Source of the DNA: Bdellovibrionota bacterium
GTDB lineage: Bacteria; Bdellovibrionota_C; UBA2361; JBIKUX01
NCBI GenBank assembly: GCA_044347345.1
Contig: JBIKUX010000006.1
Location: 25,206-89,205 of the forward strand
Length of the DNA stretch: 64,000 bases
Reading direction: 5' to 3'
Each line of letters starts with the position of its first letter. Within the stretch, counting starts at the first letter, position 1. The notes under the pieces were generated by a model. It saw only the letters and a list, made by a program, of their open reading frames with translations, was not told the DNA's origin and searched no databases. The position numbers and the translations under genes were made by a program. Shown here piece by piece: positions 1 to 36,538 of this stretch.

Positions 1-1039
1 AAGCGAGTCAGTTCTGGATGAACTAACTCCTCATCTAAGAGTAGCAATTGAATCTGCTGATGTACGTTTAAGTTTCCATGAAGGGATAACGGCACTAGCT
101 TTTTTGGCCTTTCGAGAGTTAGGTCTAGATTATGGTGTAGTAGAGGTAGGATTAGGTGGTCGCTTAGATTCAACTAATGTCATTACACGACCAGAAGTTG
201 CGATTATTACATCGATTGGATTCGATCATTGTCATATTCTTGGTAATACTTTAGCTGAGATAGCTAGGGAAAAAGCTGGAATAATAAAGGTAAACTCGGT
301 GACAGTTGTAGGAGAACTTTTAGATGAGGCTCTGAAACAGATAGTAAATATTGCCATGTCGAAACGTTCGCAACTCTTTATTTTTGATCGTGATTTTTAT
401 GCGAAAACACGTGATGATCAAGTTGAGATAGTATTATCAGATGAAGAAAGATTAACTACTAAATTGGCCTTACAGGGGGTACATCAACAGAAAAATGCGG
501 CTGTAGCGGCCTACGCTACACATACTATCGGTATTGATAAGCAATCAATTTCCTTAGGATTGTCTCGAGTATTTTGGCCAGGTCGATTTGAAGAGGTAGA
601 GTTACCTAATGGCCGTATTATTCTGGACTGTGCTCATAATCCAAATGGGATTGATACCTTTATTGCGACTCTTAATTTAACTCAGCATGTTATTCCCAAT
701 GCTATTGGTTTTGGTTGTTTAGATACTAAAGACTGGAGAGGAATGATTGATAGATTGGTAGCGTATGCTCCGAGTGCTGAATGGCTTATTGGTGAGCCTG
801 AATCTTCTCAATCAGTGAGTAGTGAAATAATTGAAGAATATTTATCGGGTTTTGGTATAAGAGCTACTTCTTTCAAAGCACGATATCAAGATTTAGCTTC
901 TGCTCTTTGTGCAGCGGCTTCACGACAATCACAACGGGTGGGCAATAATAATAAGGGACTAGCGGTTCTCGCCGGATCGATCTATCTCCTAGGTAAGGTG
1001 CGTCCTTACTTCGTCTCGTATAATCGCTTGATTTGGTAA
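1..1039 (+). CDS. folC: Folylpolyglutamate synthase / dihydrofolate synthase (FolC), 5'-truncated by window edge
   Basis: Reading frame is open from position 2 with no upstream stop, so the gene begins outside the window. Motifs EVGLGGRLDSTNV and IITSIGFDHCHILGNTLAEIAREKAGIIK are typical of the Mur-ligase/FolC family. Confidence 0.8.
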   Translation, partial: SESVLDELTPHLRVAIESADVRLSFHEGITALAFLAFRELGLDYGVVEVGLGGRLDSTNVITRPEVAIITSIGFDHCHILGNTLAEIAREKAGIIKVNSVTVVGELLDEALKQIVNIAMSKRSQLFIFDRDFYAKTRDDQVEIVLSDEERLTTKLALQGVHQQKNAAVAAYATHTIGIDKQSISLGLSRVFWPGRFEEVELPNGRIILDCAHNPNGIDTFIATLNLTQHVIPNAIGFGCLDTKDWRGMIDRLVAYAPSAEWLIGEPESSQSVSSEIIEEYLSGFGIRATSFKARYQDLASALCAAASRQSQRVGNNNKGLAVLAGSIYLLGKVRPYFVSYNRLIW

Positions 1040-1132
1040 TTTTTATTAGCTAGTCGGTGTCGATATAAGAGCCTCGAGATAGGGACTTAAAGATAGTGGT
1101 GGAAATCCCTTTTAAAGTCTTAGGAACTACGT

Positions 1133-2056
1133 ATGTCTTCTCTTTTTACAGTGGTTGACGCAGTTATAGAGCGATGGATTCTTGAGGAAATTGGTGAAGA
1201 TGACCTAAGATTACCCATTCGGTATATGACAACAGATAGTGGTGCGGCAGGTAAGAGAATTCGTTCTCAATTAGCATTCGCTGTTTATACTGATTGTGGT
1301 GGATTATCTATGCAGGCAATTGCACCCGCTCTTGCTGCCTTGGAAATGATGCATACTGCTACTCTTATTCATGATGATTTACCAGCTTTAGATAATGATG
1401 ACTACAGGCGCGGTAGATTGTCGTGTCATAAACAATTCTCAGAGTCGATAGCTATTTTGGTTGGTGATTGTTTAATGACAGGCGCTATCACAGTGCTTGG
1501 TACATTACCTTTTAATTCCAATGTTATAAGTGACACAATCAGATACCTTTCTGGGGCGGTAACGGCTGTTAATCGTGGTCAAGTTTGGGATCTTCGCCGT
1601 ACTCCCAATGATAATTTACGAGGCTTATATAGATTAAAGACCGGCGCTTTATTTAGAGCTGCTTTAGTCATTGGTGCTCGACTAGCCTTAAATTCATCTG
1701 GTACAGAGAGTAGTGACAATAGCGACGAAATATTCGCTGTTTTTGGAAGATTGGGAGATGAGATAGGGATTTTGTTTCAGCTTCTCGATGACCTTATTGA
1801 TAAAACTGAGGAGAAAGGGCGGCTTGGATTATCTAGTGACTTACGTCTAGAAAAAAAGACTATATCAGAATTAGACTCAGACATAGCCTCCGAATATGTT
1901 GTAACTACCGTTCGAGGTATTTTTGGAGCTTATGATGATTTGACCAGATTAGGGGTCGCAATCGAAAAAACTAGAGGTATTATTGATCCATTAATCACGA
2001 AAATAAGTAATCTGATAGTTGGTTCTGATATCGAGCAAATTGATTCAAGTATTTAA
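1133..2056 (+). CDS. Short-chain polyprenyl diphosphate synthase (FPP/GGPP synthase family)
   Basis: First DDxxD motif (LIHDDLPALDNDDYRRG) and second motif (FQLLDDLID) of trans-isoprenyl diphosphate synthases. Confidence 0.8.
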   Translation: MSSLFTVVDAVIERWILEEIGEDDLRLPIRYMTTDSGAAGKRIRSQLAFAVYTDCGGLSMQAIAPALAALEMMHTATLIHDDLPALDNDDYRRGRLSCHKQFSESIAILVGDCLMTGAITVLGTLPFNSNVISDTIRYLSGAVTAVNRGQVWDLRRTPNDNLRGLYRLKTGALFRAALVIGARLALNSSGTESSDNSDEIFAVFGRLGDEIGILFQLLDDLIDKTEEKGRLGLSSDLRLEKKTISELDSDIASEYVVTTVRGIFGAYDDLTRLGVAIEKTRGIIDPLITKISNLIVGSDIEQIDSSI

Positions 2057-2110
2057 AATTTAGTAATTAGCCTCATAACTTTTTGATGTGGTGAGATAAA
2101 ATTTTCTATT

Positions 2111-2193
2111 TTAAATTATGGGTGTCTTAAATTAGAGTGGGTGTCTTAAGTTAGAGAAGTTTTTTTAAATTATGGGTGTCTTAAATTTGGAGT
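2111..2193 (+). repeat. Three direct copies of TGGGTGTCTTAA(A/G)TT(A)GAG; the third copy contains the start codon of the IMPase-family gene
   Basis: ttaaattatgggtgtcttaaatt occurs at 2111-2133 and 2165-2187. A variant gtgggtgtcttaagttagag lies at 2137-2156. The ATG at 2172 lies inside copy 3. Confidence 0.7.
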
Positions 2194-2972
2194 ATCAGGC
2201 CGTTGTAGCTGCGGTAAAGGAAGTTGGAGATTTGCTATGTTCTTTGTGGCCCGTTAACGGTGATGCTAGCCACTTGTGTCCCACAGAAAAGGGTGATGGT
2301 AGTTTGGTTTCAAAGGCAGATTATTTAGCGAACGAATTACTGATTAAACGGATTCAGAATTGTTTTCCAAATGATCAGATTCACTCTGAAGAATCTCCTT
2401 TGATTAATTTCCGTTCTACAGATCAGTGGAGATGGATAATTGATCCCTTGGATGGAACTAAATCTTTTCTCGCTGGTCGTGATGATTTTTCGGTACTTGT
2501 CTGTCGCACCAAAGACGGTGAGCCTGACTTTGCTGTTATGTATTTTCCGGTGCGTAATGTGCTTGCACTAGCAGTTTGTGGTGAGGGAGCTACAATTAAT
2601 GGTGTTTCTAGTATGGTAGCTAATCACAAGCTACCTCGTAAGGCTGGTATCTATGTAAGAAATACTACTATAAATATTCAATCTGATAGTATATATCCAG
2701 ATAGTATGGATTCAGGGCTAGCGCAGCTAAATGTAGCGCAGGGTACTTTTGATGGAGCAATTATTGGCTTAACTACACATAGGGAGTGGGATATTGCAGC
2801 TCCGTCACTTATAGTTAAGGAGTCTGGTGGTATCGTAACCGACGAAAGTGGTACACCTATTTTGTTTAATCACCCAGGTATCACAGCTAAAATATACATA
2901 GCTGCTAGCTCTGCTAGTTACAAAACACTCTTCTCTAGTATTACACCCTATTCTAAGCAAAGCTACCACTAG
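2172..2972 (+). CDS. Inositol monophosphatase / CysQ-family phosphatase
   Basis: WIIDPLDGTKSFLAGRDDFSVLV matches the IMPase-family metal-binding signature (W-IDP-DGT). Confidence 0.75.
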   Translation: MGVLNLEYQAVVAAVKEVGDLLCSLWPVNGDASHLCPTEKGDGSLVSKADYLANELLIKRIQNCFPNDQIHSEESPLINFRSTDQWRWIIDPLDGTKSFLAGRDDFSVLVCRTKDGEPDFAVMYFPVRNVLALAVCGEGATINGVSSMVANHKLPRKAGIYVRNTTINIQSDSIYPDSMDSGLAQLNVAQGTFDGAIIGLTTHREWDIAAPSLIVKESGGIVTDESGTPILFNHPGITAKIYIAASSASYKTLFSSITPYSKQSYH

Positions 2973-3906
2973 GGTCAGCATTTCTCATAGGCGGTAAATT
3001 CATAGGCGGTAAAGTAGAAGAAGCGGGTGTTGTTGATGATGCTGTTCTAGCAGAATCAGGAGGAGAAGCGCTAGCAACACTTACACCCTTATCTGGTGTC
3101 GATTCGGCTATAGATATGGGTGTGACCGGCGGCGGCGGGGCTGGTGATGGATTTTTTAAACTATTTAAATAATTTATTCCTCCTGCTACGCCACCCTGTT
3201 GGAGTGCCGTGGCTAAATCTGCTGGCGTATGTTTAGTCTGCAGGGCTAAGTTTAAAAAATCAATTGCCTTTTCTGGGGTAATGGGAGCTAACCAACCCTC
3301 ATCATCTTTAGACTGAAGTTTTGCTTGTAAGTAACTCCTAATTGTGTAATTACTATCACCAGGTTGGTTGGGTATAGTAGTATTGAGTAGTTCTGTTAAG
3401 TTTGAGTCATTGAGCAGATTTTTAAGTTCTGTGGTTCGATCTGGATCCGTTGTGGTTAGATCTGGATCCGCAGTTACTTCTTGATTAGATGCTACTTGTG
3501 ACTGTTGTGGTGGAGGGTTTGATGAAAGGGGGGTCCACTTATCAAAAAGGTTGGGGGGGGAATTACCTACTTCCCGGCTCGCTGCGGCTCTGGCGTATGG
3601 CCTTAATTGAGACGAAGACGGATACGGATACGGATACGGATACGGAGGCGCTGTATTACTAAAAAGTCCTTGACCGGGATCAATAGATGCAACTAAAGTC
3701 CGGTTTCTCTGCGCAAGTTGTTGTTGTCGCATTAGCTGCCGTTCCTGTCTATCGTATGCAGCATCTTCTCTAATTTTTTGAATTGCTGTGTCTATTGGGA
3801 GTGTTGCATATTCGGTCACCAATTGAGAAACTGCACCCGATAATCTATTAAGAATATTTTTAATAAATTGCTGACCGAGCCTATCAAAGATTACTCCAAC
3901 ATCCAT
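2953..3906 (-). CDS. Hypothetical proline/serine-rich low-complexity protein with PYPYPYPY repeat
   Basis: Long ORF. Pro/Ser/Thr/Gln-rich C-terminal two-thirds. Contains (GATACG)x4 encoding PYPYPYPY, a ~20-bp tandem duplication, and a G8 homopolymer inside the CDS. No recognisable family. Confidence 0.45.
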   Translation of the reverse strand: MDVGVIFDRLGQQFIKNILNRLSGAVSQLVTEYATLPIDTAIQKIREDAAYDRQERQLMRQQQLAQRNRTLVASIDPGQGLFSNTAPPYPYPYPYPSSSQLRPYARAAASREVGNSPPNLFDKWTPLSSNPPPQQSQVASNQEVTADPDLTTTDPDRTTELKNLLNDSNLTELLNTTIPNQPGDSNYTIRSYLQAKLQSKDDEGWLAPITPEKAIDFLNLALQTKHTPADLATALQQGGVAGGINYLNSLKNPSPAPPPPVTPISIAESTPDKGVSVASASPPDSARTASSTTPASSTLPPMNLPPMRNADPSGSFA

Positions 3907-3926
3907 AATATTAATCTAGTCCAAAT

Positions 3927-4838
3927 CTAACACTTAGATTTTTTATTAAAGTTTGCGCCTAATTGTTGTGAGCGACACTTTTTTGAGCAAGTTTTATATT
4001 GTTGTCCATATTCAATACACTGATCACACACTACAGTGTTTTTGCTACAGGAGCTGCATGAAATTCTTATAGCTCCAGGGTTACCACAGTGAGGACACAG
4101 ATTATAAATGCTTGATGGAGCAAGCTCTTGTGTTACGGCTACTCGTTTATCAAAAACAAAACATTCACCTCGGAAAAAACTATTTGGATAAGACTCTAAG
4201 TAATTTAATATCCCACCATCTAATTGATAGACTTCTTTAAAGCCTCGTTCCTTAAAGGAGAATATCGCCTTTTCGCACCTTACTCCACCCGTACAAAAAA
4301 TTAGAGTTTTTTTGTCTTTAGGAAGGGAAGCGTTGTCCAGATAGTCTGGTAATTCTGAAAATTTTTGAATATTTGGAGTTATAGCTCCATCAAAAGTGCC
4401 AAGCTGCCACTCATAAGTATTTCTTGTGTCTACAATGAGAATATCTTCACCTGACGTTAATAGTGACTGCCATTCAGATGGAGAAATATGGTTATTTCGA
4501 GTCGAAATATCATTGGTATGATTTACCTCGTGTGGCTTACGAATAAAGAGAGTAATTATCTCAGGTCGAATAACTACTTTGAGTATTTTAAAAGGCTTTT
4601 GCTTTACCCAACTTTTTTTTATCTGTAAGCCTTCGGTATTAAAGTGAGTTGCAAATCCATTTAAGAAGTGATGAAAATTTTGCTCCTCGCCAGAAACAGT
4701 TGCATTATATCCTTCAGGACTAATGATAAAGTGTCCCACTATGTTAAAAGAGCGGCCTATTTCCTCAAGATATGTTTTATGCTGAGCTAGTTCTTCAGAG
4801 GATATTTGGGTAAAGAGATAAAAAGATGCAACGATCAT
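3927..4838 (-). CDS. trhO: Rhodanese-domain tRNA U34 hydroxylase TrhO (YceA/UPF0176 family) with Cys-rich C-terminal extension
   Basis: Rhodanese active-site loop CTGGVRCEKA. C-terminus carries four CxxC pairs (CPHCG..CSSCS..CDQC..CSKKC), suggesting a zinc ribbon. Confidence 0.65.
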   Translation of the reverse strand: MIVASFYLFTQISSEELAQHKTYLEEIGRSFNIVGHFIISPEGYNATVSGEEQNFHHFLNGFATHFNTEGLQIKKSWVKQKPFKILKVVIRPEIITLFIRKPHEVNHTNDISTRNNHISPSEWQSLLTSGEDILIVDTRNTYEWQLGTFDGAITPNIQKFSELPDYLDNASLPKDKKTLIFCTGGVRCEKAIFSFKERGFKEVYQLDGGILNYLESYPNSFFRGECFVFDKRVAVTQELAPSSIYNLCPHCGNPGAIRISCSSCSKNTVVCDQCIEYGQQYKTCSKKCRSQQLGANFNKKSKC

Positions 4839-4922
4839 TAAATACTACTTCTGTATATATCTAAATAGAAACCACGCTAAAGAGGTTTTAAGGAGTAAGC
4901 AAATAACTTTAAGCTATCTGAG

Positions 4923-6536
4923 TTAATAAGCTCTGGCAAATATCGCCCTCACTCTGGCAGGACGACCTGTAAGAACGCATGAACCTAACTCGCCATCTTT
5001 ATAAAAAGTGTCTCCTTCAATAGGGATACACCGCACAGAGACTTTAAGTGGCGCAAGTAATTCTTCAGTCTCAGCCGCTTCACTCCACGGAGCTACTATA
5101 AAGCCAGAGGAAGAAGAAGCATTTGCAGTGCCTGCTAATCCAATGTCATTTTCAGCCTCCTCCTTTCCTGCTTCAAAGTAATGCTGAAAATCTTTAAATG
5201 TTGCTACGGATGACTCTGTCCGAGATTTTAAAATATCAAACGCTTGAGATCTGTAAGTATCTTGAATTTCTTGTAAAATATCAGCAGCCTGAGATAGGAA
5301 TTGGGTTCTGTCAATGATTAGCTTATCTTTTGGTTCTTTATCTCTCCGATACAAAACTATATTGCCACTGGCTACATCTCGAGGGCCTACTTCCACTCGA
5401 AGGGGTATCCCTTTTTTAATCCATTGCCAGTTTTTTTCACCACCGCGAATATCACGGTCATCTACAGTAACTCTCAAAGTCTCACCCCAACAAGTTACGT
5501 TTTCTAGCGAATTTTTAAGATCAGTACAAAATTTTATTACAGAGTTCGCGCTATCTGACTTTGGTATAACTGGAAGAATAACTATATGCTTAGGCGAAAT
5601 TCGAGGAGGAAGGCGCACTCCGTTATCGTCTCCATGCACCATTAACATACCCCCAATTAAACGAGTAGAAACGCCCCATGAGGTGGTAAAAGCATGCATA
5701 CGCACGCCTGTTTCATTTAAAAACATTATATTGCAAGCTTTGGCAAAATTCTGACCGAGATAATGAGAAGTCCCAGCCTGAAGTGCCTTGCCATCTTGCA
5801 TCATCGCTTCAATGGTAAAGGAATTCTCTGCCCCTGGAAAACGTTCGAATTTAGGTTTTTCACCTCTAATGCATGGGATAGCCATACAGTCGTTGACAAA
5901 ATCATAATAAATTTTGTGCATTAGCTTAGTCTCAGCTAATGCTTCCTCAGCAGTAGCATGTACAGTGTGGCCTTCTTGCCACAAAAATTCGGAAGTTCTG
6001 AGGAATAAACGAGTTCGCATTTCCCATCGGACTACATTTGCCCATTGGTTAATTAATAACGGAAGATCACGATAAGATTGAACCCATCTAGAGAAAGCGT
6101 CACCGATAATTGTCTCAGAAGTTGGTCTCACAACTAAAGGTTCTTCAAGTTGGCCTGCTGGTACTAATTTGCCATCTTTACTCTCAAGACGATGATGGGT
6201 AACAACGGCACATTCCTTGGCAAATCCTTCGATGTGAGCAGCTTCCTTTTCAAGAAAACTAAGCGGAATAAAAAGCGGAAAATAAGCATTTTCATGTCCA
6301 GTAGATTTGATTTTTTCATCAAGAAATCGCTGAACACGTTCCCAAATTCCGTAGCCCCACGGCTTTATAATCATGCATCCACGCACCGGAGAGTGCTCTG
6401 CTAGTGAACCAGCTTTTATAATAGCCTGATACCACTCAGGAAAGTTTTCCGCACGCGTGGGTGTTATTGCTGTTGATGATGATGATGATGTTGTTGTTGC
6501 TGTTGTCTCGTCACTCATAAGTGGATAAAAAGTCAA
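4923..6536 (-). CDS. proS: Prolyl-tRNA synthetase, eukaryal/archaeal-type (no bacterial insertion/editing domain), with Ser/Thr-rich N-terminal extension
   Basis: FPEWYQAIIKAGSLAEHSPVRGCMIIKPWGYGIWERVQ resembles the N-terminal catalytic region of archaeal/eukaryal-type ProRS. Class II aaRS motifs present. Length 537 aa. Confidence 0.85.
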   Translation of the reverse strand: MTFYPLMSDETTATTTSSSSSTAITPTRAENFPEWYQAIIKAGSLAEHSPVRGCMIIKPWGYGIWERVQRFLDEKIKSTGHENAYFPLFIPLSFLEKEAAHIEGFAKECAVVTHHRLESKDGKLVPAGQLEEPLVVRPTSETIIGDAFSRWVQSYRDLPLLINQWANVVRWEMRTRLFLRTSEFLWQEGHTVHATAEEALAETKLMHKIYYDFVNDCMAIPCIRGEKPKFERFPGAENSFTIEAMMQDGKALQAGTSHYLGQNFAKACNIMFLNETGVRMHAFTTSWGVSTRLIGGMLMVHGDDNGVRLPPRISPKHIVILPVIPKSDSANSVIKFCTDLKNSLENVTCWGETLRVTVDDRDIRGGEKNWQWIKKGIPLRVEVGPRDVASGNIVLYRRDKEPKDKLIIDRTQFLSQAADILQEIQDTYRSQAFDILKSRTESSVATFKDFQHYFEAGKEEAENDIGLAGTANASSSSGFIVAPWSEAAETEELLAPLKVSVRCIPIEGDTFYKDGELGSCVLTGRPARVRAIFARAY

Positions 6537-6566
6537 AGAACTAGATGTGAACTCAGCTCTTGCATG

Positions 6567-7346
6567 TTAGCCATCAATGGAACCGGCAATTTGAGCTTGA
6601 ATCCCTTGCTCTTGAATTTCTGCTCCTATTTGAGGAGTACCGGAAACGTGAATAACGTTTGTTTCAGGAGCAATTGAGACCTTTAGGTCGTCGCTAAATC
6701 GAGAAAAGCCGTACCTGACTGCTCCGCCGTTATCTCTAAGAAGATCCCGACATGCTTTATCTTGACCGCTAAACCAAAGTTGCTGGTATCTCTCTAGTAG
6801 AGCGCTATCGTCTAAAAGCTCTCGGTCGATCATGGCTAGACATCTTGTGTCAATAAGCACTAAGCCCGTCTCTTTGCTTCCTGATAAATCTCCTTCGCAA
6901 TCTTCACCCCTTACTCCTTCAGGATGGATAATAATAGAGGATTTATAAGGATTACGATGAATTCGATAGGTGCCGGAATCAAGTGCGATAACCTGTCCTC
7001 CGTACTGACTTACTACCTCATTTTTGACCTCTGGAGCTTCATCTATGATTTTCGATAAGCTTGCAATAAAGCGCGGATTGGCAAGCATGAACTGGTCAAT
7101 TAAAACTAAGTTACCACTTTCAACTGCTATTCTCTCTCGTTTGTTACCGCTATCAAAGCTTTGTCGGTGGTGACGCGACCTTCTGTGACGTCCACTGTGA
7201 TGACGTCCACTACTATGCTGTCCACTATTATGCTGTCCACCGTGATGCTGATGCCCGCCGCGACCTTCTGAATGATTACCATTATTATTTCCGTGATGTT
7301 GGCCTCTACGACCGCTGCCTCTTCGAGCAGAATGCTCCTTACGCAT
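6567..7346 (-). CDS. Hypothetical protein with ~60-aa His/Gly/Arg-rich N-terminal tail
   Basis: N-terminus is MRKEHSARRGSGRRGQHHGNNNGNHSEGRGGHQHHGGQHNSGQHSSGRHHSGRHRRSRHHRQ, followed by a ~190-aa globular-looking domain of unknown family. Confidence 0.5.
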   Translation of the reverse strand: MRKEHSARRGSGRRGQHHGNNNGNHSEGRGGHQHHGGQHNSGQHSSGRHHSGRHRRSRHHRQSFDSGNKRERIAVESGNLVLIDQFMLANPRFIASLSKIIDEAPEVKNEVVSQYGGQVIALDSGTYRIHRNPYKSSIIIHPEGVRGEDCEGDLSGSKETGLVLIDTRCLAMIDRELLDDSALLERYQQLWFSGQDKACRDLLRDNGGAVRYGFSRFSDDLKVSIAPETNVIHVSGTPQIGAEIQEQGIQAQIAGSIDG

Positions 7347-25820: not shown

Positions 25821-27095
25821 TTATACTGTTTCTAAAAGCTCTGAGCAAAGAGCTTGAATAGTACGACCGGTAGCGCCAATATGATTTTGAAAAGTCTGGT
25901 ATCCTTGTTCGCCGATATTTTTAAGTGCTTCTGGACATTCGACAAGTTTTCTTAGAACTTCAGTTGCTCCTAATTGATTGGTGATTTCAATTATTCCGTT
26001 GGTTTTTTTGAGATCTGATACAATCTCCCCAACAGTGAATGAATGAGGACCCATTACTACTGGCACTCGATAAGCCGCTGCCTCTAATGGATTGTGGCCA
26101 CCAATCGGTACTAATGAAGCTCCTATAAATACGAGTGATGAGTAGGAATAAACTCGCTCAAGTTCACCAAATGTATCAAGTAATACAATACGCTCATTGT
26201 CGTTAGCAGGGCGCTTTTCAGCTTTAAGAGTGGTAAATCTGACGGCAGAAAGACCAGCATTACTGAGAGCATTTTCAAAATACTCAAACTTTTCTTTATG
26301 ACGCGGCGCTACAATAAGTTGAAGATCGTGATATTTAGACATAATTTCACGAATCGGATCAAACCAAATTTTCTCCTCCTGTGGTCTTATGCTACCTAGG
26401 GTAATAATGCTTTTGGGAGTACTAAATATAGTATGAGCGTATACTGTAGCCTCCTCTTTAGATGTTATTGATGGTTTACGATCGTACTTTGTGTTTCCGG
26501 TGATGATTATGCGATTATTTGGAATGCCAAGGTTTGCATATCTATCCTTTGATGCTCTGTCGATCACACAAGCTAGAGATATAGCTTTAACTACATCCCT
26601 TAAAAAAGGAGCTAGAACTCGATAACGGTTAACTGTTGTATCGGAAATTCGGCCATTAATAATAAGCACCTTACCTCCTTGATTTTTTACGAATCTTATC
26701 AGTTCAGGCCAAAGCTCTGTTTCACAAATAATAAGAAGTTTAATAGTAGAATTTTTTAATGCTTGTTTTAAAAATTTTTTGCTATCAAAAGGAAGAAACG
26801 CTGAACCATCGAATAATTCTTTTCCAATTTTTTCTGCATAGTTTGAAACACTTGTGTGAAGAAAAAAGCTGGATGGAAACTTTGACTTAAAGAAGGGTAA
26901 AAGCTCCGCCACTGATTGAGTTTCTCCGAGGGAGGCTCCATGAAACCAAACAATTGACTGATTAGTTGGTAAGCTGAATGGCCAGAAACCATACCTCTCC
27001 TTGAGTCGGTATCTTCCTCTTGAAGAAGCAAAAAAAAATGGATAGGAAAGATAACCGAGAGCTAGCATTAAGAAGCGGTAAGAAAGTGTTCCCAT
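25821..27095 (-). CDS. waaA: 3-deoxy-D-manno-octulosonic acid (Kdo) transferase
   Basis: IWFHGASLGETQSVAELL N-terminal signature of WaaA/KdtA. GT30 C-terminal domain pattern. Confidence 0.85.
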   Translation of the reverse strand: MGTLSYRFLMLALGYLSYPFFFASSRGRYRLKERYGFWPFSLPTNQSIVWFHGASLGETQSVAELLPFFKSKFPSSFFLHTSVSNYAEKIGKELFDGSAFLPFDSKKFLKQALKNSTIKLLIICETELWPELIRFVKNQGGKVLIINGRISDTTVNRYRVLAPFLRDVVKAISLACVIDRASKDRYANLGIPNNRIIITGNTKYDRKPSITSKEEATVYAHTIFSTPKSIITLGSIRPQEEKIWFDPIREIMSKYHDLQLIVAPRHKEKFEYFENALSNAGLSAVRFTTLKAEKRPANDNERIVLLDTFGELERVYSYSSLVFIGASLVPIGGHNPLEAAAYRVPVVMGPHSFTVGEIVSDLKKTNGIIEITNQLGATEVLRKLVECPEALKNIGEQGYQTFQNHIGATGRTIQALCSELLETV

Positions 27096-27122
27096 AAAAT
27101 TTTCAATACTATCGATACTTTT

Positions 27123-30100
27123 CTAGCTGTACTTTTGATCTGGATTGTCGTTATGGTTTCCAGCATCCTCTGGGAATGTAATATCAATTTCATTTGTAAT
27201 CTTTTTACAAGAATTGTCGACAGAGGAGCTACCATCGAGAGACGAACTAACGAGAGATGCGCTAAATTGTAGCTCGTAGAGACGTTTGTACTCGCCGTCT
27301 TTATCCATTAATTCGTCATGTGTTCCTATTTCAACTACTACTCCATCTTTTAAAACAAAAATTCTATTGGCTGAGCGGATTGTTGAGAGACGATGAGCTA
27401 TCACAAGAGTTGTTCTGCCCTTTTCAAGAACCTCTAAGGCTTTTTGAACCTCACGTTCGGAACTATTATCAAGAGATGCTGTTGCTTCATCTAGTATCAG
27501 AATCGGAGATTTACTAATTAAAGCTCGTGCTATAGCGATTCTTTGTCTCTCGCCGCCTGATAAGGTCATTCCACTTTCACCAATAATTGTAAAGAAACCT
27601 AGAGGAAGCTGCTTTATAAATTGATAAGCATAAGCAAGTCGGGCAGCATTCTCTACGTCCTCGAGGGTCGCATCTCTTCTGCCATATCTTATGTTTTCAA
27701 AGATAGAATCCTGAAACAAAAATGTGTGCTGGCTTACCATAGCTATTCTCGAGCGAAGCTCAGAGAGAGAAAGTTTTCTTATATCAATTCCTCCAAGAAG
27801 CAATCGACCCTGAGTTGGATCGATAAAGCGCGGGATTAGATCGACAAGTGTTGATTTCCCTGATCCAGATAGACCAACAAGTGCAATTTTTTCTCCCTCT
27901 TCGATGGACATTGTGACATTGGTAAGGGCTCCTCGGGAGGAAGAACGACTATATGAGAAAGAGATATTTTCAAAAGAAATGCAGTTTGTTTTCGGCATGG
28001 AAACTGGATTTTCTGGTGAAGCTATAGTTACTTGAGCATCGAGCACTTCGAAAATACGATGACTGCCCGCTATGCCTTGTTGTAGTGCACCTGTAACTCG
28101 ACTAAGCTTTTTAAAGGGATCGTACATTAAAAAGACTGCTAGTAAAAAAGCTATAAAGTCACCCTGCGTTCTGCTGCCGGAGATAACTGTAGTACCTCCA
28201 TAGAAGATAATTGTACCAATTGCTATACTAGCTAGCACTTCGTTAATTGGTCCTACAAGAGCTCTAACTTTTTCTGACCGAATTAAGGTTCGAGTAAGAG
28301 AGGAGTTAGCTTGCCGAAAACGTGATTGTTCGTAGTCTTCTGCTGTGAATAATTTTACTATTTTATTGCCGTGAATAGCTTCGCTAAAAAGAGAGGACAG
28401 AGATCCTATAGCTTCCTGACCTTTTCTTGACAGCCTTCTCATCTTCTTTCCAAATGAACTGACTGGAATAATGCCAAGAGGGAATACAATCACTGCAATA
28501 AAAGCGAGAAATGGATCGAGAAAGAAAGCAGCAAAAGTGAGAGCAATTATTCTAACAATATCTCGAAGAATTGCTGATGTAGAATCCGTTAGAAGCGTGC
28601 GCACTAATTGAACATCTGCAGTAGCTCTAGCCAATAAGTCGCCACTGGATTTATCAGAAAAAAAACTCGGACTTAGTAATAATAATTTTTGGTGTAGTTT
28701 GTTTCTAAGGTCTTCAACGACTCGGTGCCCTACTGAATTTTGTAGATATTGTTGGCCAAAATCAACGAAGGCTCGAAAAAAACTAATGCTTACCAAAATA
28801 ATTGGAAAAATTAGTAAAACATCTCTTTGTCCATTTGTTAAAACCTTATCTAAAGCAAATTTAACAATAAACGGAACCGCTCCATCTGTTGCCCCGTAGC
28901 ATACCATACATAATATAGCTAAAATAAATCTGCGCTTGTGTGGTCTTAACAGTTCTAATAAGCGACGGTTCTCAGTGATTAACGGTGGTTTCGTGGCGGC
29001 AAGTTTTAGCGCAGTTTTAGCTACTCGAAGGGCTGCATCCTCTTTTGACTCATTAGAGGTTTCATTAGCTGAGAGATATGAAAGAAGATTTTCGCTTTTA
29101 TCCCTTTCATCGTAGCTAGATAATTGTTTGCGGATTAGAGCTAAATTATCTTCGATCTGCTTTCGGTAAGCATTATCTGTAAGTAATCTGTCTACTTCAT
29201 CTGCAACATTACTGACCGTAAAATCATCTTGTAGAAGTTCTCGAATAGTATTTGGTATAAGTATGTTTACTATGGAGAATTGCTTAAGTGGAGAGAGTTT
29301 TCTTATGATTGTTGCTGAAATTGGATGAACTGCATAGACCATCGCAAAAGGAAGGCCCGCATAGGCGGCTTCAAGGTTGCATGTACCTGACTTTAAAATA
29401 CCGATATCGCTACCGAACAAAACCGTTTTTGTATCTCCTTGCCAAACTATACACCAGTCTAAATGAGGACGAATTAATTCGTAGGTACCGGCGATTAAGT
29501 GGGAAGGAATGGGTATCACTGCTGTAATTGGTTTACCTCTTTTTCTGGCTTCTAAGAGGCCGTTAATTAATATTGGTAAATTCGCGGTAACTTCCTGAGA
29601 ACGGCTACCAGGGAAAATTGATACAACATTGTCGGATGAGGGGATTGCTAAAGTGCGCCGAAGTTCTGAGCTAATTTTTGTTCGCGTAGATGCTACGTCA
29701 TTAGGAAACTTATCCTTAAAAGGGTGCCCTACATAAGAAGTTCGGTAAAACCCATGTTTTGCTAAAAATTCCTTTTCAAAAGGAAATATAGTAGCTACAT
29801 GATGAACGTAGCGGTCGAGAGCACGGACTCGGCTTGGACGAGAAGCCCATAACTTTGGCGGTACATAATATAATACCGGTATTTTTAAATCTCGAGCTTT
29901 TTTTGCAACACGCAGATTAAAAGTTGGAAAATCAATCAAAATAATTACATCTGGTCGCCATGTTCGTAGAGTTTTTGTAATCGTAGAGAACGCCGTAAGA
30001 AGTTGTTTACCAGAGCGGATTACTTCAATAATCCCCATCACCGCACCAGCAGATTCTGAATCAACTACTATATTAATTCCTTGAGCCTTTGAATAGCGTC

Positions 30101-30356
30101 CTCCCATTCCTTTTATTTCGGCGTGCGGCACTAGGCTAAAAATAGCTTGGGCTAACTCTGCTGCTCTTTGGTCTCCTGAAACCTCTCCGGCAATAATAAA
30201 TATCTTAGGTCGGTCACACGCTGAATCTACTGTTTTAGCTAATACAGAATTTTCATCGACAGCTAATCCATCTTTAGCTAAAGGGATTGCGTTATTTGTT
30301 ACACCTGTCTTTGATGTTACTGAGTTTGTCATGCTGATATTTGGCATAAATTTCAA
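27123..30356 (-). CDS. Fusion protein: lipid-A-disaccharide synthase (LpxB) N-terminal domain plus MsbA-like lipid A ABC exporter C-terminal domain
   Basis: N-terminal KIFIIAGEVSGDQRAAELAQAI and IDFPTFNLRVAKKARDLKIPVLYYVPPKLWASRPSRV are LpxB-like. C-terminus has 6 TM helices, Walker A (GLSGSGKST), ABC signature (LSGGERQRIAIARAL) and Walker B (ILILDEATASLD). A single 1077-aa ORF with no internal stop. Confidence 0.8.
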   Translation of the reverse strand: MKFMPNISMTNSVTSKTGVTNNAIPLAKDGLAVDENSVLAKTVDSACDRPKIFIIAGEVSGDQRAAELAQAIFSLVPHAEIKGMGGRYSKAQGINIVVDSESAGAVMGIIEVIRSGKQLLTAFSTITKTLRTWRPDVIILIDFPTFNLRVAKKARDLKIPVLYYVPPKLWASRPSRVRALDRYVHHVATIFPFEKEFLAKHGFYRTSYVGHPFKDKFPNDVASTRTKISSELRRTLAIPSSDNVVSIFPGSRSQEVTANLPILINGLLEARKRGKPITAVIPIPSHLIAGTYELIRPHLDWCIVWQGDTKTVLFGSDIGILKSGTCNLEAAYAGLPFAMVYAVHPISATIIRKLSPLKQFSIVNILIPNTIRELLQDDFTVSNVADEVDRLLTDNAYRKQIEDNLALIRKQLSSYDERDKSENLLSYLSANETSNESKEDAALRVAKTALKLAATKPPLITENRRLLELLRPHKRRFILAILCMVCYGATDGAVPFIVKFALDKVLTNGQRDVLLIFPIILVSISFFRAFVDFGQQYLQNSVGHRVVEDLRNKLHQKLLLLSPSFFSDKSSGDLLARATADVQLVRTLLTDSTSAILRDIVRIIALTFAAFFLDPFLAFIAVIVFPLGIIPVSSFGKKMRRLSRKGQEAIGSLSSLFSEAIHGNKIVKLFTAEDYEQSRFRQANSSLTRTLIRSEKVRALVGPINEVLASIAIGTIIFYGGTTVISGSRTQGDFIAFLLAVFLMYDPFKKLSRVTGALQQGIAGSHRIFEVLDAQVTIASPENPVSMPKTNCISFENISFSYSRSSSRGALTNVTMSIEEGEKIALVGLSGSGKSTLVDLIPRFIDPTQGRLLLGGIDIRKLSLSELRSRIAMVSQHTFLFQDSIFENIRYGRRDATLEDVENAARLAYAYQFIKQLPLGFFTIIGESGMTLSGGERQRIAIARALISKSPILILDEATASLDNSSEREVQKALEVLEKGRTTLVIAHRLSTIRSANRIFVLKDGVVVEIGTHDELMDKDGEYKRLYELQFSASLVSSSLDGSSSVDNSCKKITNEIDITFPEDAGNHNDNPDQKYS

Positions 30357-30596
30357 ATTGAGTACTATTCCCGCAATAATAGCATTATTAAAACAATTCT
30401 ACGACCTGTGACGAGGATACTTTTTGCTTGTGAATGATCTTTCTTGAAAGAGTAAAAAACCTTATTTTTTTGCAGGTTTTATGCTATTTTAAGGATGGTA
30501 ATAGGAATGCTAAGAATGGGTTAAATAGTTTTTTAGCTCACTAAAAAGGGTGTTTAAGTCTGCTCTTAGTTTTTCCTATTTTATAGAGGAGGTAGT

Positions 30597-30875
30597 ATGA
30601 AAACTAATTTACTCGTTTCCAGTGGTATTGTTCGCGCTACGTTAATAACTAGCATAAGTGTAGCGATGATTGGATGTGCTTCAGTAGGTGAAGTTCGTTC
30701 CTTGCGAGATGAGGTTAGGGGTTTGCGTTCAGCACACTCAGAAATATCTCAGGAAGCTCGCAGAGCTGGTGACGCAGCTGAAAAGGCTGAGTTACAAGCT
30801 AAAGAGGCTAACGAAAGGTCTGTCCGTACTGAAGAAATGCTCAATCGGAGCTTTCAAAGGAGGATGTATAAGTAA
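30597..30875 (+). CDS. Braun-lipoprotein (Lpp)-like small coiled-coil lipoprotein
   Basis: Strong SD (AGGAGG) upstream. Signal peptide with lipobox Cys (AMIGCAS). About 60 aa of heptad-like helix (LRDEVRGLRSAHSEISQEARRAGDAAEKAELQAKEANERSV). C-terminal ...RRMYK ends in Lys, as in E. coli Lpp (...TKYRK). Confidence 0.5.
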   Translation: MKTNLLVSSGIVRATLITSISVAMIGCASVGEVRSLRDEVRGLRSAHSEISQEARRAGDAAEKAELQAKEANERSVRTEEMLNRSFQRRMYK

Positions 30876-31977
30876 CACTAACTGATTCAGGAATGCCGTT
30901 AGCGTGGCTGATTAGTCTATCGATTTCTTTGCGAGAAGTTGGAGAAAAACCGCGAGATTGTAGAAGTTGATAAATTTTGTTTGTTTTAACCAATTTGTTA
31001 AAGGTTAAAGTTGAACTTTGTACCTGACTTGAACCTGACAGCGTTGAGTCTCGGGGCTGTTCACGTTGAAAATGATGTGATTGATTAACTGGTTGGTGAG
31101 TGATGTTGGGAAAGTTAGAATCGTCCTGTGATAAATCAGGATGAATTTCGACAAATACGGAGTTATGTCGCTCACCAACCTTGATTTGTTCGTCAATAAT
31201 TGTAACTTTTGTTCCTAGAGTTACCACAGCGAATAATTGGGCTATATCCTCAGGATACATTCGGATGCAGCCGTGAGTAACTAAAAGACCGATACCCATG
31301 GCTTTCTCAAGATTAGTTCCGTGAATAAGATAAGTGCTGTTACTTAGTCGTAAAGCAAATTGTCCAAGGGGGTTGTTGGGTGAACCGCCCTTAATGATAG
31401 TGGGGAGCGTATATCCGCCGGCAAGTGCTTCACGGTGAAGTGAGGGCGGAGGAATCCAATCTGGATGAACTATCTTTTCGGTTATTATTTTAACCCCCAG
31501 CGGTGTCTCCCAACCTTCTCTACCGAGGCTAACCGGAAAAGTCATTACATCTGTAGAATCATCACCTTTTGGAAAATAATACAAGCGCATTTCAGCTCTG
31601 TTAAGTATTATGCCGGTGCGTGGTCCAGGGGGTAGAACATACATTTGCGGGATTTTAACCTTAGTTCCGTCACCAGGAAGCCATACCGAAATATTTGGAT
31701 TAGCCTGTACAATCTGTTTAAATCCAAGATCGTATCTGCGAGCTATGACTGGTAATGTATCTTCCTTGGATGCTGTAATAAAAAATTTATTACCAATGAC
31801 GGATTCCTTAGGTGAATTTAAGTTAAAAGTTTCAGCAAGGGCAAATTTTTTACTATTATCCGAAATCAAATTAATGCTGATTAATATTGCCAAAACCACT
31901 AAACTGACTCGTAGTATGTGATTAATTAATAATATTACCGTTAGATTACTTAATAGATTCTTCATTAGTTTTTTCAT
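30841..31977 (-). CDS. L,D-transpeptidase (LysM plus YkuD domains)
   Basis: LysM-like DTLPVIARRYDLGFKQIVQANPNISVWLPGDGTKVKIP. YkuD catalytic motif LVTHGCIRMYPEDIAQLF (H...C). Confidence 0.8.
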   Translation of the reverse strand: MKKLMKNLLSNLTVILLINHILRVSLVVLAILISINLISDNSKKFALAETFNLNSPKESVIGNKFFITASKEDTLPVIARRYDLGFKQIVQANPNISVWLPGDGTKVKIPQMYVLPPGPRTGIILNRAEMRLYYFPKGDDSTDVMTFPVSLGREGWETPLGVKIITEKIVHPDWIPPPSLHREALAGGYTLPTIIKGGSPNNPLGQFALRLSNSTYLIHGTNLEKAMGIGLLVTHGCIRMYPEDIAQLFAVVTLGTKVTIIDEQIKVGERHNSVFVEIHPDLSQDDSNFPNITHQPVNQSHHFQREQPRDSTLSGSSQVQSSTLTFNKLVKTNKIYQLLQSRGFSPTSRKEIDRLISHANGIPESVSVTYTSSFESSD

Positions 31978-33292
31978 CTAATGCGGAGGAATACTCGAGC
32001 TTTATGTTAAGTAGTGAGCTATACAAAGAGATAAGTGTCTCTCGAAAAGCTCTTTGAGAGTATTTATTGTCCGCCAAATTTTTTGCAGCTTCGCCAAGAG
32101 CTTTGCACCGCACTGGATTATTAAGGAGCGAGTTTATTCCCTCAGCAAGTGCATGTGAACTAACTTCGGTCAAAACTGCTGATTGATTGTCGATTATTTG
32201 CAAGTGACTTTCAATAGCTGTGGCTATAATTGGTTTGCCGGCGGCTAGATAAGAATAAAGTTTCATAGGTGTGTTGGTACCGTAGCGTCTTGGAGATACT
32301 AAAATATCGGCTTGAGCTAGGAGATATGGAAGTTCTGGTAAAGGCCGTGGTCCTAAGAGATGAATTTTATTTTGTGCATCTGATGGTAAGGATCTAATTA
32401 AATTCTTTGTTCGTTCTATGTCAGCCAAAGTTCCGCCGATAAGGACTAAATGGGCATTTTCGTTGATGTTTTGCCACGCTTGGACAAGTAAATCAGTGCC
32501 TTGGTATGGCTCAAAATTTCCTACATATAATACAATCATAGAATCGGCAGGAGCCTGAATTAAAGATTGAATATTAGGATGATTGTTATTTTGTGAGTTA
32601 TTGGACGGAATAGCAAAATCACGAAGTATAACTACTTTTGGTGTATTAGCCGAATAGGCTACTTTTGCCAATGAATCACATACTGCAATAGTGGCTAGAG
32701 AGTCACACATTATCTGACTTTCTATTCGCTTGAGTATTTGCTCTCCCGGACCTACCCACCACCACTTAGCGCGCACAAGTTCAGATAAATGCGAGTCCAT
32801 ATCGTAAATGTAAGGTATTTTAAATAGACGCATGAGTATCCAGCCTATACCCGCTGCTTCCTCAACCCCGTGTACGAGGGTATAGGGAAAATTACTTGCT
32901 TTGTTTTGCCGCATAAGTTGTACAGCAGCTTTAAGGAGATAGAGGTCAGCAACACATTTTTTTATTGAGACACCTGGTCTCATATTCTTGAGGAAATTGC
33001 TCACAACTGAAGGAGGTTTTATTCGATGAATTATTAATCTTGGATGAAAAATAGGCTCACCCTCTGCTACTGTTAGTATGTCAATGTAAAGTGTTGGAAA
33101 GCAGGCTAGTAACTCCTCAACAAGTTGCTTTACTGCGATAGGAGTACCGCGCTCAGTATAAAAGGGCTGAGGCGCAATTAGAAGAATCCGTCTTCTGCTG
33201 AGGGTATCTTTAAGGCCATTTATCATCTGTTTAGTAAGCGACTCTATATACACTGGTTTGGGCAGTATCAGCGAGTATGTTACTGTTAGCAA
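31946..33292 (-). CDS. Glycosyltransferase family 1 (GT4-like)
   Basis: C-terminal Glycos_transf_1 region (SPRRYGTNTPMKLYSYLAAGKPIIATAIESHLQII). Confidence 0.7.
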   Translation of the reverse strand: MLTVTYSLILPKPVYIESLTKQMINGLKDTLSRRRILLIAPQPFYTERGTPIAVKQLVEELLACFPTLYIDILTVAEGEPIFHPRLIIHRIKPPSVVSNFLKNMRPGVSIKKCVADLYLLKAAVQLMRQNKASNFPYTLVHGVEEAAGIGWILMRLFKIPYIYDMDSHLSELVRAKWWWVGPGEQILKRIESQIMCDSLATIAVCDSLAKVAYSANTPKVVILRDFAIPSNNSQNNNHPNIQSLIQAPADSMIVLYVGNFEPYQGTDLLVQAWQNINENAHLVLIGGTLADIERTKNLIRSLPSDAQNKIHLLGPRPLPELPYLLAQADILVSPRRYGTNTPMKLYSYLAAGKPIIATAIESHLQIIDNQSAVLTEVSSHALAEGINSLLNNPVRCKALGEAAKNLADNKYSQRAFRETLISLYSSLLNIKLEYSSALDEKTNEESIK

Positions 33293-33333
33293 AGTTTGTC
33301 ATTGTTTAAGTTAATTCTTTATGAGGTGATACC

Positions 33334-34086
33334 TTGCTTGAGGCTCCTGATATTCATAGTGGAAGTATTGAGTATGCTTCTCGTTTTTCTGGCTTAGTTG
33401 GAGCTTGGATGCTTGACGTTCAGTGGCACGCTATTAACAAGCTTATTGCTCTAACGGTGCCCCCGCCTGGACCAGTTTTAGATATAGGAGGAGGTCACGG
33501 CCAGCTTGCTATGCGCTTAGCTAAAGCAGGATATGATGTCACAGTTTTAGTTTCTAACTTTTCAGCATGGGAGAACTTAAGACAAGAAATAAACGGCTTG
33601 GAATCAGAAGCTGATAAGCTGGCCTCTGAGCGGCTAACCATAGTTGAAGGATTAATTCATCGACCCAGCGAACTCTTTTCTCCTGACTCGTATCCTTTAG
33701 TTTTAGCCGTACGAATATTATCTCATTTAGAGCAATGGGAGACCTTTCTAAAAGAGATGTGTTTGGTGGCAAGAAAACAAGTAGTTTTTGATTATCCGTC
33801 GAACATGAGCATAAATCTTCTCAAAGAAATGTTATTTACAATGAAAAAAAGAGTTGAGGGTAACACTCGAAGTTTTTTGGTATTTGACGATAATGAAATT
33901 GAAAAAGCCATTAAAAGTTCTAATTACACTATAGCCAAAAAGTATCGGCAGTTTTTTTTGCCTATGGCGCTTCATCGTTTCATTCAAGTGTCTGAAGTAA
34001 GTAAAACCCTAGAAAAAATTGCCCATTCGGTAGGTATTACGCCACTTTTCGGTTCTCCAGTGGTGCTTTCTGCTGTTGCAAGTTAG
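33334..34086 (+). CDS. Class I SAM-dependent methyltransferase
   Basis: Motif I VLDIGGGHGQLAMRLAKAGYDVTVL. Confidence 0.6.
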   Translation: MLEAPDIHSGSIEYASRFSGLVGAWMLDVQWHAINKLIALTVPPPGPVLDIGGGHGQLAMRLAKAGYDVTVLVSNFSAWENLRQEINGLESEADKLASERLTIVEGLIHRPSELFSPDSYPLVLAVRILSHLEQWETFLKEMCLVARKQVVFDYPSNMSINLLKEMLFTMKKRVEGNTRSFLVFDDNEIEKAIKSSNYTIAKKYRQFFLPMALHRFIQVSEVSKTLEKIAHSVGITPLFGSPVVLSAVAS

Positions 34087-34122
34087 ACTTATGGTTAAAA
34101 ACTACGCTGGAGGTATCAATAT

Positions 34123-34575
34123 ATGAATAAAACTTATGTTTGTCGGCAGTTATTTACAGTCTTTGTTTTCAGTGTAGCCTTAAGTGCTTGTACCGCTAGT
34201 CAGAACCCATTTGTAGCATCTAGTCGCCCGAGTTTGTATCCTAATGAGCACCTTCAAAAAGTGGGAATGCAGCGAGCAAATGCTGATATTGACGAATGTA
34301 TGGCACTAGCTGACCAATATGCAGAGCAGCCTTCTCAGTGGCAAGAGGCATTAAAAAGTTCAGCCAAAGGAGCTGTTGCTGGAACTGCGGTTGGAGCTGT
34401 GGGTGGTTCAGTATTTAGTAAAGCGGGTAGAGGTGCTGGTGCTGGTGCTGCTGTAGGAGGTATGTTAGGACTCTTAAGTGAATTAAATAATATGGGCAAT
34501 AGAACTCCTTCTTATGAAAGATTTACGGAATACTGCTTACAAAAGAAAGGTTATGAAATCACTGGTTGGAGGTAG
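34123..34575 (+). CDS. Glycine-zipper outer-membrane lipoprotein (SlyB / 17-kDa-antigen-like)
   Basis: Lipobox LSACTAS. Gly-zipper GAVAGTAVGAVGGSVFSKAGRGAGAGAAVGGMLGLL. Confidence 0.6.
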   Translation: MNKTYVCRQLFTVFVFSVALSACTASQNPFVASSRPSLYPNEHLQKVGMQRANADIDECMALADQYAEQPSQWQEALKSSAKGAVAGTAVGAVGGSVFSKAGRGAGAGAAVGGMLGLLSELNNMGNRTPSYERFTEYCLQKKGYEITGWR

Positions 34576-35830: not shown

Positions 35831-36538
35831 TTATGGTACTACAGCAATTGTTCCTACAATTGTAGCTGAACCTGGAATTTGGCTCCAAGTCCCATTTGCA
35901 CTACCCCTTGCAATCGCTGTTAGTCTGAATCTGACTGGTGTCGTCATTATGTTACCAGAATCAAGAGTTTGACCGGATTGATCTTCTCCTAAAGCTTCTT
36001 GTTCTAATCTCTCAACTTGAACCCACTGACTTAATCCTTGATTATTTGAAATCAGATAATCAGGAGGAGTATCTGGACGAGCTTGTAATTGTCGGTGTAT
36101 TGGTTGAGCCAAAGAAACAGTTGTTGCATAGTCTCCAGCAAACGGTCCGATATTTTTAACTAAACCACCAGAATAGGGGTACATATTTCGATGACAACCT
36201 GGACTGTTGATCTCACAGTGAGGAATGCCGTTTTGATCCTGCGCACTGAGGGGGCTGTAAGCCTGATAGTTTAATGGAGAATCAAGAGTTTGTAACGCAT
36301 CCCACTGTTTTGCATTCGAGGCAATTTGAGCTGCTTGGCTATAAAGAGCTCCCTCAGCAGCGGCAAATAATTGCGCAGACTGCTCGTAATTATTTGATGT
36401 TTGCAGCATATTTCTGCCCATGAGGCTGACTACGGCAGCAACCATCACCATAGTAACAAGAAAAAAAAGAGCTACTGGCAGGGCAAACCCGGATTGCTGT
36501 GATACTTTCAGGAGCTTATTATCAGCATCGGTGATCAT
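35831..36538 (-). CDS. Minor pseudopilin, GspK/PilX-like
   Basis: N-terminal QQSGFALPVALFFLVTMVMVAAVV hydrophobic segment, without Glu at +5 (typical of GspK/PilX). Last gene of the pseudopilin operon. Confidence 0.5.
   Translation of the reverse strand: MITDADNKLLKVSQQSGFALPVALFFLVTMVMVAAVVSLMGRNMLQTSNNYEQSAQLFAAAEGALYSQAAQIASNAKQWDALQTLDSPLNYQAYSPLSAQDQNGIPHCEINSPGCHRNMYPYSGGLVKNIGPFAGDYATTVSLAQPIHRQLQARPDTPPDYLISNNQGLSQWVQVERLEQEALGEDQSGQTLDSGNIMTTPVRFRLTAIARGSANGTWSQIPGSATIVGTIAVVP

Follow-up and report, generated by a model that had tools for sequence, protein, structure and literature searches.

Does a small gene for a lysine-terminated lipoprotein, lying tail to tail with an L,D-transpeptidase (Ldt) gene in a Bdellovibrionota genome, encode a covalent tether that links the outer membrane to the cell wall, and is the neighbouring enzyme the one that attaches it? 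The two genes occupy positions 30,597-31,977 of a 64,000-nt stretch of DNA from a Bdellovibrionota bacterium (GCA_044347345.1, contig JBIKUX010000006.1, forward strand 25,206-89,205), referred to here as the window. An earlier note on this DNA had described a 92-aa open reading frame (ORF) with an AGGAGG ribosome-binding site, a lipobox cysteine and a C-terminal ...RRMYK, and had read it as a Lpp-like lipoprotein and a possible divergent outer membrane-peptidoglycan tether, paired side by side with a LysM-YkuD Ldt. The analysis presented here makes it probable that the lipoprotein is a tether of the Lpp/OprI type covalently attached by the neighbouring Ldt, which we consider the most likely mechanism.

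The lipoprotein gene (30597-30875, + strand) encodes a 92-aa product that consists of a signal peptide, MKTNLLVSSGIVRATLITSISVAMIG, and a mature part, CASVGEVRSLRDEVRGLRSAHSEISQEARRAGDAAEKAELQAKEANERSVRTEEMLNRSFQRRMYK. A Shine-Dalgarno sequence, AGGAGG, could be read 4 nt 5' of the ATG (30587-30592, + strand), the signal peptide covers aa 1-26 and runs into the lipobox V-A-M-I-G-C, and the lipobox cysteine, Cys27 (codon 30675-30677), is followed by Ala at residue +2. The mature lipoprotein has 66 aa and the C-terminus ...NRSFQRRMYK, with the terminal Lys92 encoded at 30870-30872 immediately before the TAA stop (30873-30875). The ORF, its ribosome-binding site, the lipobox cysteine and the C-terminus named in the earlier note were thus all present in the sequence. 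JGI gene calling placed the same 92-aa gene on independent metagenome contigs, with the Ldt gene beside it and in the same gene order.

Profile searches, the family alignment, AlphaFold2 modeling and the heptad register were used to classify the gene as one for an Lpp/OprI-family alanine-zipper lipoprotein. The protein scored 33.9 bits with PF11839, the Alanine_zipper or OprI family (E 4e-8, aa 33-92 against model positions 10-69 of 69), above the gathering cut-off of 23.1 bits, and the precomputed JGI annotation assigns PF11839 as well. The search with a Lpp (LPP repeat) model, which the earlier note had proposed as a check, came out the other way: PF04728, the family of Braun lipoprotein proper, gave 13.5 bits against a cut-off of 29.1. 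Because this test failed, PF04728 membership is ruled out and the protein is not placed in Lpp sensu stricto. Comparison of the lipoprotein family with E. coli Lpp by hhalign nevertheless gave a probability of 95%, a remote similarity whose score is inflated somewhat by coiled-coil composition. Against solved structures, the family profile matched best the alanine-zipper variants of Lpp-56 (1kfn, E 0.003) and also matched chain 9tz4 (E 0.01), whose aligned sequence we take to be OprI of Pseudomonas aeruginosa.

When a library of 1.84 billion representative proteins was searched exhaustively with HMMER, 21 relatives were found at E<1e-3, each 69-104 aa long. All of them have an N-terminal signal sequence except P0001, which is truncated at its N-terminus, and they share a G/A-C-A/S lipobox throughout and the C-terminal consensus R-T-E-E-M-L-N-R-x-F-K-R-S-M-Y-K. 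P0001, the representative of a variant cluster, is 94% identical to the window protein; the four positions that differ all lie toward the N-terminus, and the final ~45 residues are unchanged. A profile search extended the family to 253 homologous proteins, and PF11839 was found in 120 of the 120 matches listed. Where their sources give a name, it is mostly "murein lipoprotein", "alanine-zipper protein" or "Lpp/OprI family alanine-zipper lipoprotein", and the hosts named among these listed matches are Competibacteraceae, Plasticicumulans, Halioglobus and the betaproteobacterium Nitrosomonas.

Family traits were counted over 134 retrieved relatives. The C-terminal lysine is present in every one of them (134/134) and the lipobox in 133, with the lipobox cysteine invariant in the family alignment. 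Mature lengths differ by whole-heptad steps, at 59 aa (47 proteins), 66 aa (43), 73 aa (16) and 52 aa (6), a ladder that looks like discrete sizes of a periplasmic "ruler"; one further member of this set (P0002-P0135) has a mature length of 80 aa, which is that of licanantase. Lipobox, long coiled-coil helix and invariant terminal lysine together back the reading of a Lpp-like lipoprotein. On its profile matches and motifs, the window protein is classed as a member of the Lpp/OprI alanine-zipper family with the subfamily signature ...EEMLNRxF(K/Q)(K/R)xMYK, and it falls among the curated PF11839 and NCBIfam Lpp/OprI alanine-zipper lipoproteins instead of standing apart as the divergent tether first suggested.

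The predicted structure agrees with the coiled coil anticipated from the sequence. AlphaFold2, run with the family alignment, returned one unbroken helix over residues 5-91 with a mean predicted local distance difference test (pLDDT) score of 89, and of 94-98 in the mature part. In the best heptad register the a/d positions read S-V-L-V-L-H-I-A-A-A-A-A-A-S-T-L-S-R-K, with core residues at 12 of 19 positions. V33, L36, V40, L43 and I50 are followed at a/d by A54, A57, A61, A64, A68 and A71, so that the core is a Leu/Val zipper passing into a six-Ala alanine zipper.

The convergent gene (30841-31977, - strand) encodes a 378-aa Ldt of the ErfK/YbiS/YcfS/YnhG type, recognized by its YkuD domain, motifs, NCBIfam scores and a structure match. 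An N-terminal hydrophobic anchor or signal is followed by a LysM-like segment (aa 71-97), the YkuD domain (aa 122-260) and a conserved C-terminal "GIPxxV" element. Of the domain pair assigned in the earlier note, YkuD and the enzyme class were borne out (80.7 bits against a Pfam cut-off of 23.4), while LysM came just below threshold, its partial match covering positions 5-30 of 43 and scoring 19.6 bits against 20.9. The N-terminal region aligns from residue ~50 onward with two homologues of solved structure, 9tyw and 4lzh. The catalytic motif, defined as (S/T)xGCh(R/N) in PMC10434034, is intact: the catalytic His lies in IHG at aa 218-220, and T-H-G-C-I-R at aa 234-239 contains Cys237 (codon 31267-31269).

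Which E. coli enzyme this Ldt resembles was assessed with NCBIfam equivalog models. Scores were 193.9 bits for LdtE (cut-off 480), 175 for PRK10190 (cut-off 517) and 172 for PRK10260 (cut-off 583). Because these scores are similar and all far under the equivalog cut-offs, orthology to one of LdtA/B/C/E was rejected and the enzyme is placed in the ErfK/YbiS/YcfS/YnhG group as the orthologue of no single E. coli paralogue; its identity to E. coli LdtE is 37%. The best solved structure was 9tyw_A (216 bits, E 4e-63), whose PDB code adjoins 9tz4, the chain that we take to be OprI. The nearest GTDB matches, 34-49% identical, come from Methylococcales, Binatia, a "delta proteobacterium" and others.

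The 3' ends of the two genes overlap by 35 bp (30841-30875), as first estimated. On the lipoprotein side the overlap takes in the conserved ...FQRRMYK terminus, and on the Ldt side the final 11 codons, which are not conserved. An overlap of this size is unusual: in 51 related metagenome loci, 8-362 bp (typically ~65 bp) separate the lipoprotein stop from the Ldt stop, and among related contigs L023 alone also overlaps, by 15 bp. Conservation of the pairing was examined in two synteny samples, one of 8 contigs with lipoprotein family members and one of 65 loci (53 distinct peptides) obtained from a metagenome scan with the family C-terminal pattern. On the 8 family contigs, a YkuD gene adjoins the lipoprotein gene in every case, with a convergent Ldt of 304-399 aa downstream in seven and a short YkuD protein of 163-209 aa encoded upstream in seven. 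On L015-L023, the convergent Ldts share 40-49% identity with the window Ldt and carry the motif (S/T)xGC(I/V)R. In the metagenome sample, 47 of 50 informative loci had a convergent Ldt gene whose product carries THGC[VILM]R and 57 of 58 had a short upstream YkuD, and both YkuD genes were present in 40 of 43. The side-by-side pairing that the earlier note had pointed out is therefore not accidental, being kept in ~94% of informative subfamily loci, and because both YkuD flanks are near-universal among the relatives, the usual unit consists of a DpaA-like gene, the lipoprotein gene and a convergent Ldt gene.

The description of the upstream gene as DpaA-like rests on several comparisons. The short YkuD proteins (~165-260 aa; L015-L023 and L027-L091, for example L031 2279-2902) contain the motifs TxGC[VI]A and GDxKTPxG. 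By hhalign, their profile matched E. coli DpaA with 97.3% probability (E 2e-11) compared to 84.5% (E 7e-6) for LdtE, and on the DpaA equivalog model they scored 16-17 bits against a cut-off of 365. Judged from these scores, they are best described as DpaA-like and not as DpaA orthologues. DpaA (YafK/LdtF) is the amidase that frees Lpp from peptidoglycan, and the short YkuD proteins share with it the DpaA-type GC-h-A motif, which a passage of PMC10434034 citing Winkle et al. mentions as a proposed signature of this Lpp-detaching amidase.

Comparison with the closest related contig, L024, showed that the lipoprotein and Ldt genes are also linked in their presence and absence. By tblastx, window positions 34575..32009 match L024 positions 125..2722 and window positions 30206..25848 match L024 positions 2928..7172, and ~1.8 kb between them (30207-32008) is absent from L024. 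This indel holds the Ldt gene, the lipoprotein gene, an intergenic region and ~50 codons from the start of a neighbouring lpxB-msbA fusion gene, and corresponds to ~200 bp in L024, whose own fusion protein is 65% identical to that of the window. Since L024 is collinear on both sides yet lacks both genes, the two were gained or lost together, and the pair behaves as one unit, present in the window and absent from a close relative. No compositional sign of recent transfer was seen, with third-position GC contents (GC3) of 0.31 and 0.34 for the two genes compared to a window mean of 0.29 (standard deviation 0.03).

Two characterized systems provide models for such a pair. The window locus resembles OprI/LdtPae2 of P. 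aeruginosa in having a small PF11839 lipoprotein whose coiled coil is an Ala zipper and whose last residue is lysine, and in the partner enzyme, which is of the same ErfK-type lineage as the window Ldt. LdtPae2 (ErfK/YbiS/YcfS/YnhG lineage) is the sole enzyme that anchors OprI, and losing either one destabilizes the envelope (PMC10434034). The two lipoproteins differ in that OprI, which founded the family, ends in ...LEKASRK, whereas the window protein ends in ...SFQRRMYK, has its own EEMLNRxF motif and narrowly misses the NF040598 cut-off. We assume that oprI (PA2853) lies beside the Ldt gene PA2854; papers mention PA2854 and PA14_27180 but never state adjacency.

The lpp (+) and ldtE (-) genes of E. 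coli K-12 converge with 64 bp between them, the same layout as in the window. Lpp shares with the window protein a lipobox, a coiled-coil ruler (trimeric in Lpp), the terminal lysine and the hhalign similarity given above, but its mature part is 58 aa long and ends in -RK, as opposed to 66 aa and -YK in a protein that fails the PF04728 test. The pair in the window is thus a genuine, if rather ordinary, further example, its convergent layout being already known from lpp-ldtE. Licanantase of Acidithiobacillus thiooxidans is a further alanine-zipper lipoprotein, likened here by its description, and its mature length of 80 aa fits the series 52, 59, 66, 73 and 80; it differs in having been studied as a secreted bioleaching additive. 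LimB of Coxiella burnetii was considered as a relative of the lipoprotein and ruled out, as it is Coxiella-specific, belongs to an unrelated family and is tethered via the internal Lys21 instead of a C-terminal lysine on a coiled coil.

These comparisons suggest how the pair would work. The lipoprotein precursor would be exported by Sec, receive its lipid at Cys27 and lose its signal peptide to signal peptidase II, and with Ala at +2 the Lol system would be expected to bring it to the outer membrane's inner leaflet. The 66-residue mature chain could then form a parallel three-stranded coiled coil that spans the periplasm, first through its Leu/Val zipper and then through its Ala zipper; the idea of a trimer comes from the precedents of the Lpp-56 crystal structures and of licanantase, which was found to be trimeric by chemical cross-linking and is the major secretome component of A. 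thiooxidans (PMC4137666). The neighbouring ErfK-type Ldt would use Cys237 to form an acyl-enzyme with a tetrapeptide stem of peptidoglycan, and the outcome would be a covalent tether of the outer membrane to the wall. We infer trimerization, outer-membrane sorting, the covalent link and the role of this Ldt as its maker from the features and precedents described above.

Several observations weigh against a tether made by this particular enzyme. The lipoprotein scored 38 bits with NF040598, the NCBIfam model for Lpp/OprI family alanine-zipper lipoproteins (E 1.8e-9, nearly full-length alignment 15-92 / 6-90), and so narrowly missed its cut-off of 43, and its penultimate residue is Tyr, compared to Arg or Lys in characterized substrates. 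The window has no DpaA-like gene, as tblastn found no second YkuD in its 64 kb, and the upstream neighbour of the lipoprotein gene is the divergent lpxB-msbA gene, not a short YkuD gene. Seen from the side of the enzyme, no lipoprotein of this kind lies within 6 kb in any of 11 GTDB loci with Ldts 34-49% identical to that of the window. Finally, E. coli LdtE makes 3-3 cross-links and LdtA/B/C attach Lpp. Attaching and cross-linking Ldts form no separate lineages (PMC10434034). Because LdtE cross-links although its gene is adjacent to lpp, adjacency alone is no proof of an enzyme-substrate relation.

This last point leads to an alternative that we judge unlikely, in which the lipoprotein is a tether attached by some other Ldt encoded elsewhere in the genome, while the adjacent enzyme is a 3-3 cross-linker like LdtE and adjacency reflects shared regulation of envelope stiffening. 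The convergent lpp/ldtE pair is a precedent, LdtE is the NCBIfam model with the best score (193.9 bits compared to 175 and 172), and the function of an Ldt is unreadable from phylogeny (PMC10434034). All of these model scores are far under their equivalog cut-offs, however, so that "LdtE" is no orthology call. Linkage in 47 of 50 loci is also far tighter than shared regulation by itself would predict, the usual DpaA-like gene points to the lipoprotein-peptidoglycan bond itself, and the two genes were gained or lost as a pair. The closest solved relative of the enzyme, 9tyw, likewise has a PDB code beside that of the chain we take to be OprI. Together these points favour attachment by the neighbouring Ldt over a division of labour as in E. 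coli.

A lipoprotein that is not bound to peptidoglycan at all is considerably less probable. It would be a free outer-membrane or released coiled-coil protein, acting as a spacer, exposed at the surface or part of the secretome, with its terminal lysine kept for other reasons. The secretome abundance of the alanine-zipper protein licanantase offers a parallel, and the -Tyr-Lys terminus of the window protein departs from the -Arg-Lys or -Lys-Lys of proven substrates; Lpp too, however, has conserved Tyr and Lys residues close to its C-terminus (...KYRK, in the L014 translation), and a C-terminal lysine in all 134 relatives together with near-universal YkuD flanks is hard to account for otherwise. 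The idea that the 92-aa ORF is merely a chance open frame opposite the Ldt 3' end and the intergenic region draws on its shortness and on its 35-bp overlap with another gene, and is effectively refuted by a Pfam match over the cut-off, by 253 homologues with the same architecture, by the strong ribosome-binding site and by P0001, in which the last ~45 residues are unchanged at 94% overall identity. The ORF is a real gene, far beyond chance, and a tether attached by the neighbouring Ldt remains the reading that we prefer.

The lipoprotein-Ldt pair sits inside a cluster of genes for lipid A and the lipopolysaccharide (LPS) core. Along the minus strand, the gene order is Gly-zipper protein, methyltransferase, GT1 glycosyltransferase, Ldt, the lipoprotein gene on the plus strand, LpxB-MsbA fusion, KdtA and LpxK. 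The GT1 glycosyltransferase gene (31946-33292, - strand) and the start of the Ldt gene share 32 bp (31946-31977, - strand) at the GT1 gene's 3' end, which suggests that the Ldt gene is co-transcribed with an LPS-core gene, and an operon apparently joins the two. The lipoprotein promoter presumably sits at 30357-30596, in the intergenic region from which lpxB-msbA (-) and the lipoprotein gene (+) diverge. It was not located, because the sigma-70-like sites given by a consensus scan around the lipoprotein gene were weak and confined to the distant lpxB end; the same scan gave no terminator, and an Rfam scan of the window gave no RNA matches. The 64-kb window contains no second member of the lipoprotein family.

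The LpxB-MsbA fusion next to the pair (27123-30356, - strand), with KdtA and LpxK following, is a single ORF of 1077 aa that joins LpxB, the lipid-A-disaccharide synthase, to an MsbA-type part, an ABC lipid flippase. This architecture recurs in ~20 metagenomic protein clusters at 42-65% identity, and the sole relative with a taxonomic name comes from a metagenome-assembled genome of Candidatus Dadabacteria (46% identity). A literature search found no description of an LpxB-MsbA fusion. A second hint as to the host comes from isoleucyl-tRNA synthetase (IleRS; 55141-58410, - strand, 1089 aa), which is of the eukaryote-like type 2, scoring 787 bits to cytoplasmic IleRS and ~316 to the type-1 IleRS of Staphylococcus aureus. 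A type-2 IleRS is not typical of Gammaproteobacteria as their housekeeping enzyme, and its presence may hint at the host lineage. Given the relatives of the fusion and the type-2 IleRS, the lipoprotein-Ldt cassette may sit outside Gamma- and Betaproteobacteria.

The published statement limiting Lpp to four gammaproteobacterial orders was obtained by hmmsearch with PF04728 at --cut_ga. Because a search with PF04728 alone misses OprI-type proteins, the "four orders" figure understates covalent lipoprotein tethers. The view in the earlier note that Lpp-type tethers are largely limited to some Gammaproteobacteria matches that statement, and relatives of the window protein include Nitrosomonas. The locus adds one Lpp/OprI-type tether with a likely transpeptidase, and such tethers would be more widespread than that frequently cited figure implies. 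Synteny of the lipoprotein and Ldt genes, usually with a DpaA-like gene, could serve as a genomic criterion for lipoprotein-anchoring Ldts where phylogeny cannot, and the heptad-quantized mature lengths (52, 59, 66, 73 and 80 aa) fit a periplasm whose width is set in discrete steps. Modestly new are the ~1.8-kb indel of the pair within an LPS-core cluster beside an LpxB-MsbA fusion, the near-universal three-gene module and the quantized lengths. More tentatively, the two genes may together make up a self-contained "covalent tether" cassette, gained by a lineage outside Gamma- and Betaproteobacteria and lost by a sister lineage, with DpaA-like amidase, OprI-type lipoprotein and Ldt forming an undescribed transferable unit for attachment and detachment; we see this as possible but doubtful. 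If true, the attach/detach module could predict which Ldts anchor lipoproteins.

Three further genes were noted. On L005, a contig of a metagenome-assembled genome labelled uncultured Rhodospirillaceae, an unrelated 64-aa lipoprotein (7356-7550, - strand; lipobox FLGAC, end ...RDLRK) without a match to the profile of our lipoprotein family is encoded ~490 bp beyond, and convergent to, an Ldt gene whose product is 47% identical to the window Ldt; this lipoprotein may represent an independent small Ldt substrate that ends in Lys. Near the LPS cluster of the window, a 150-aa Gly-zipper (YMGG/OmpA-like) protein is encoded at 34123-34575 (+ strand), and a gene at 36535-37215 (- strand) encodes a type IV pilin-like N-terminal methylation motif.

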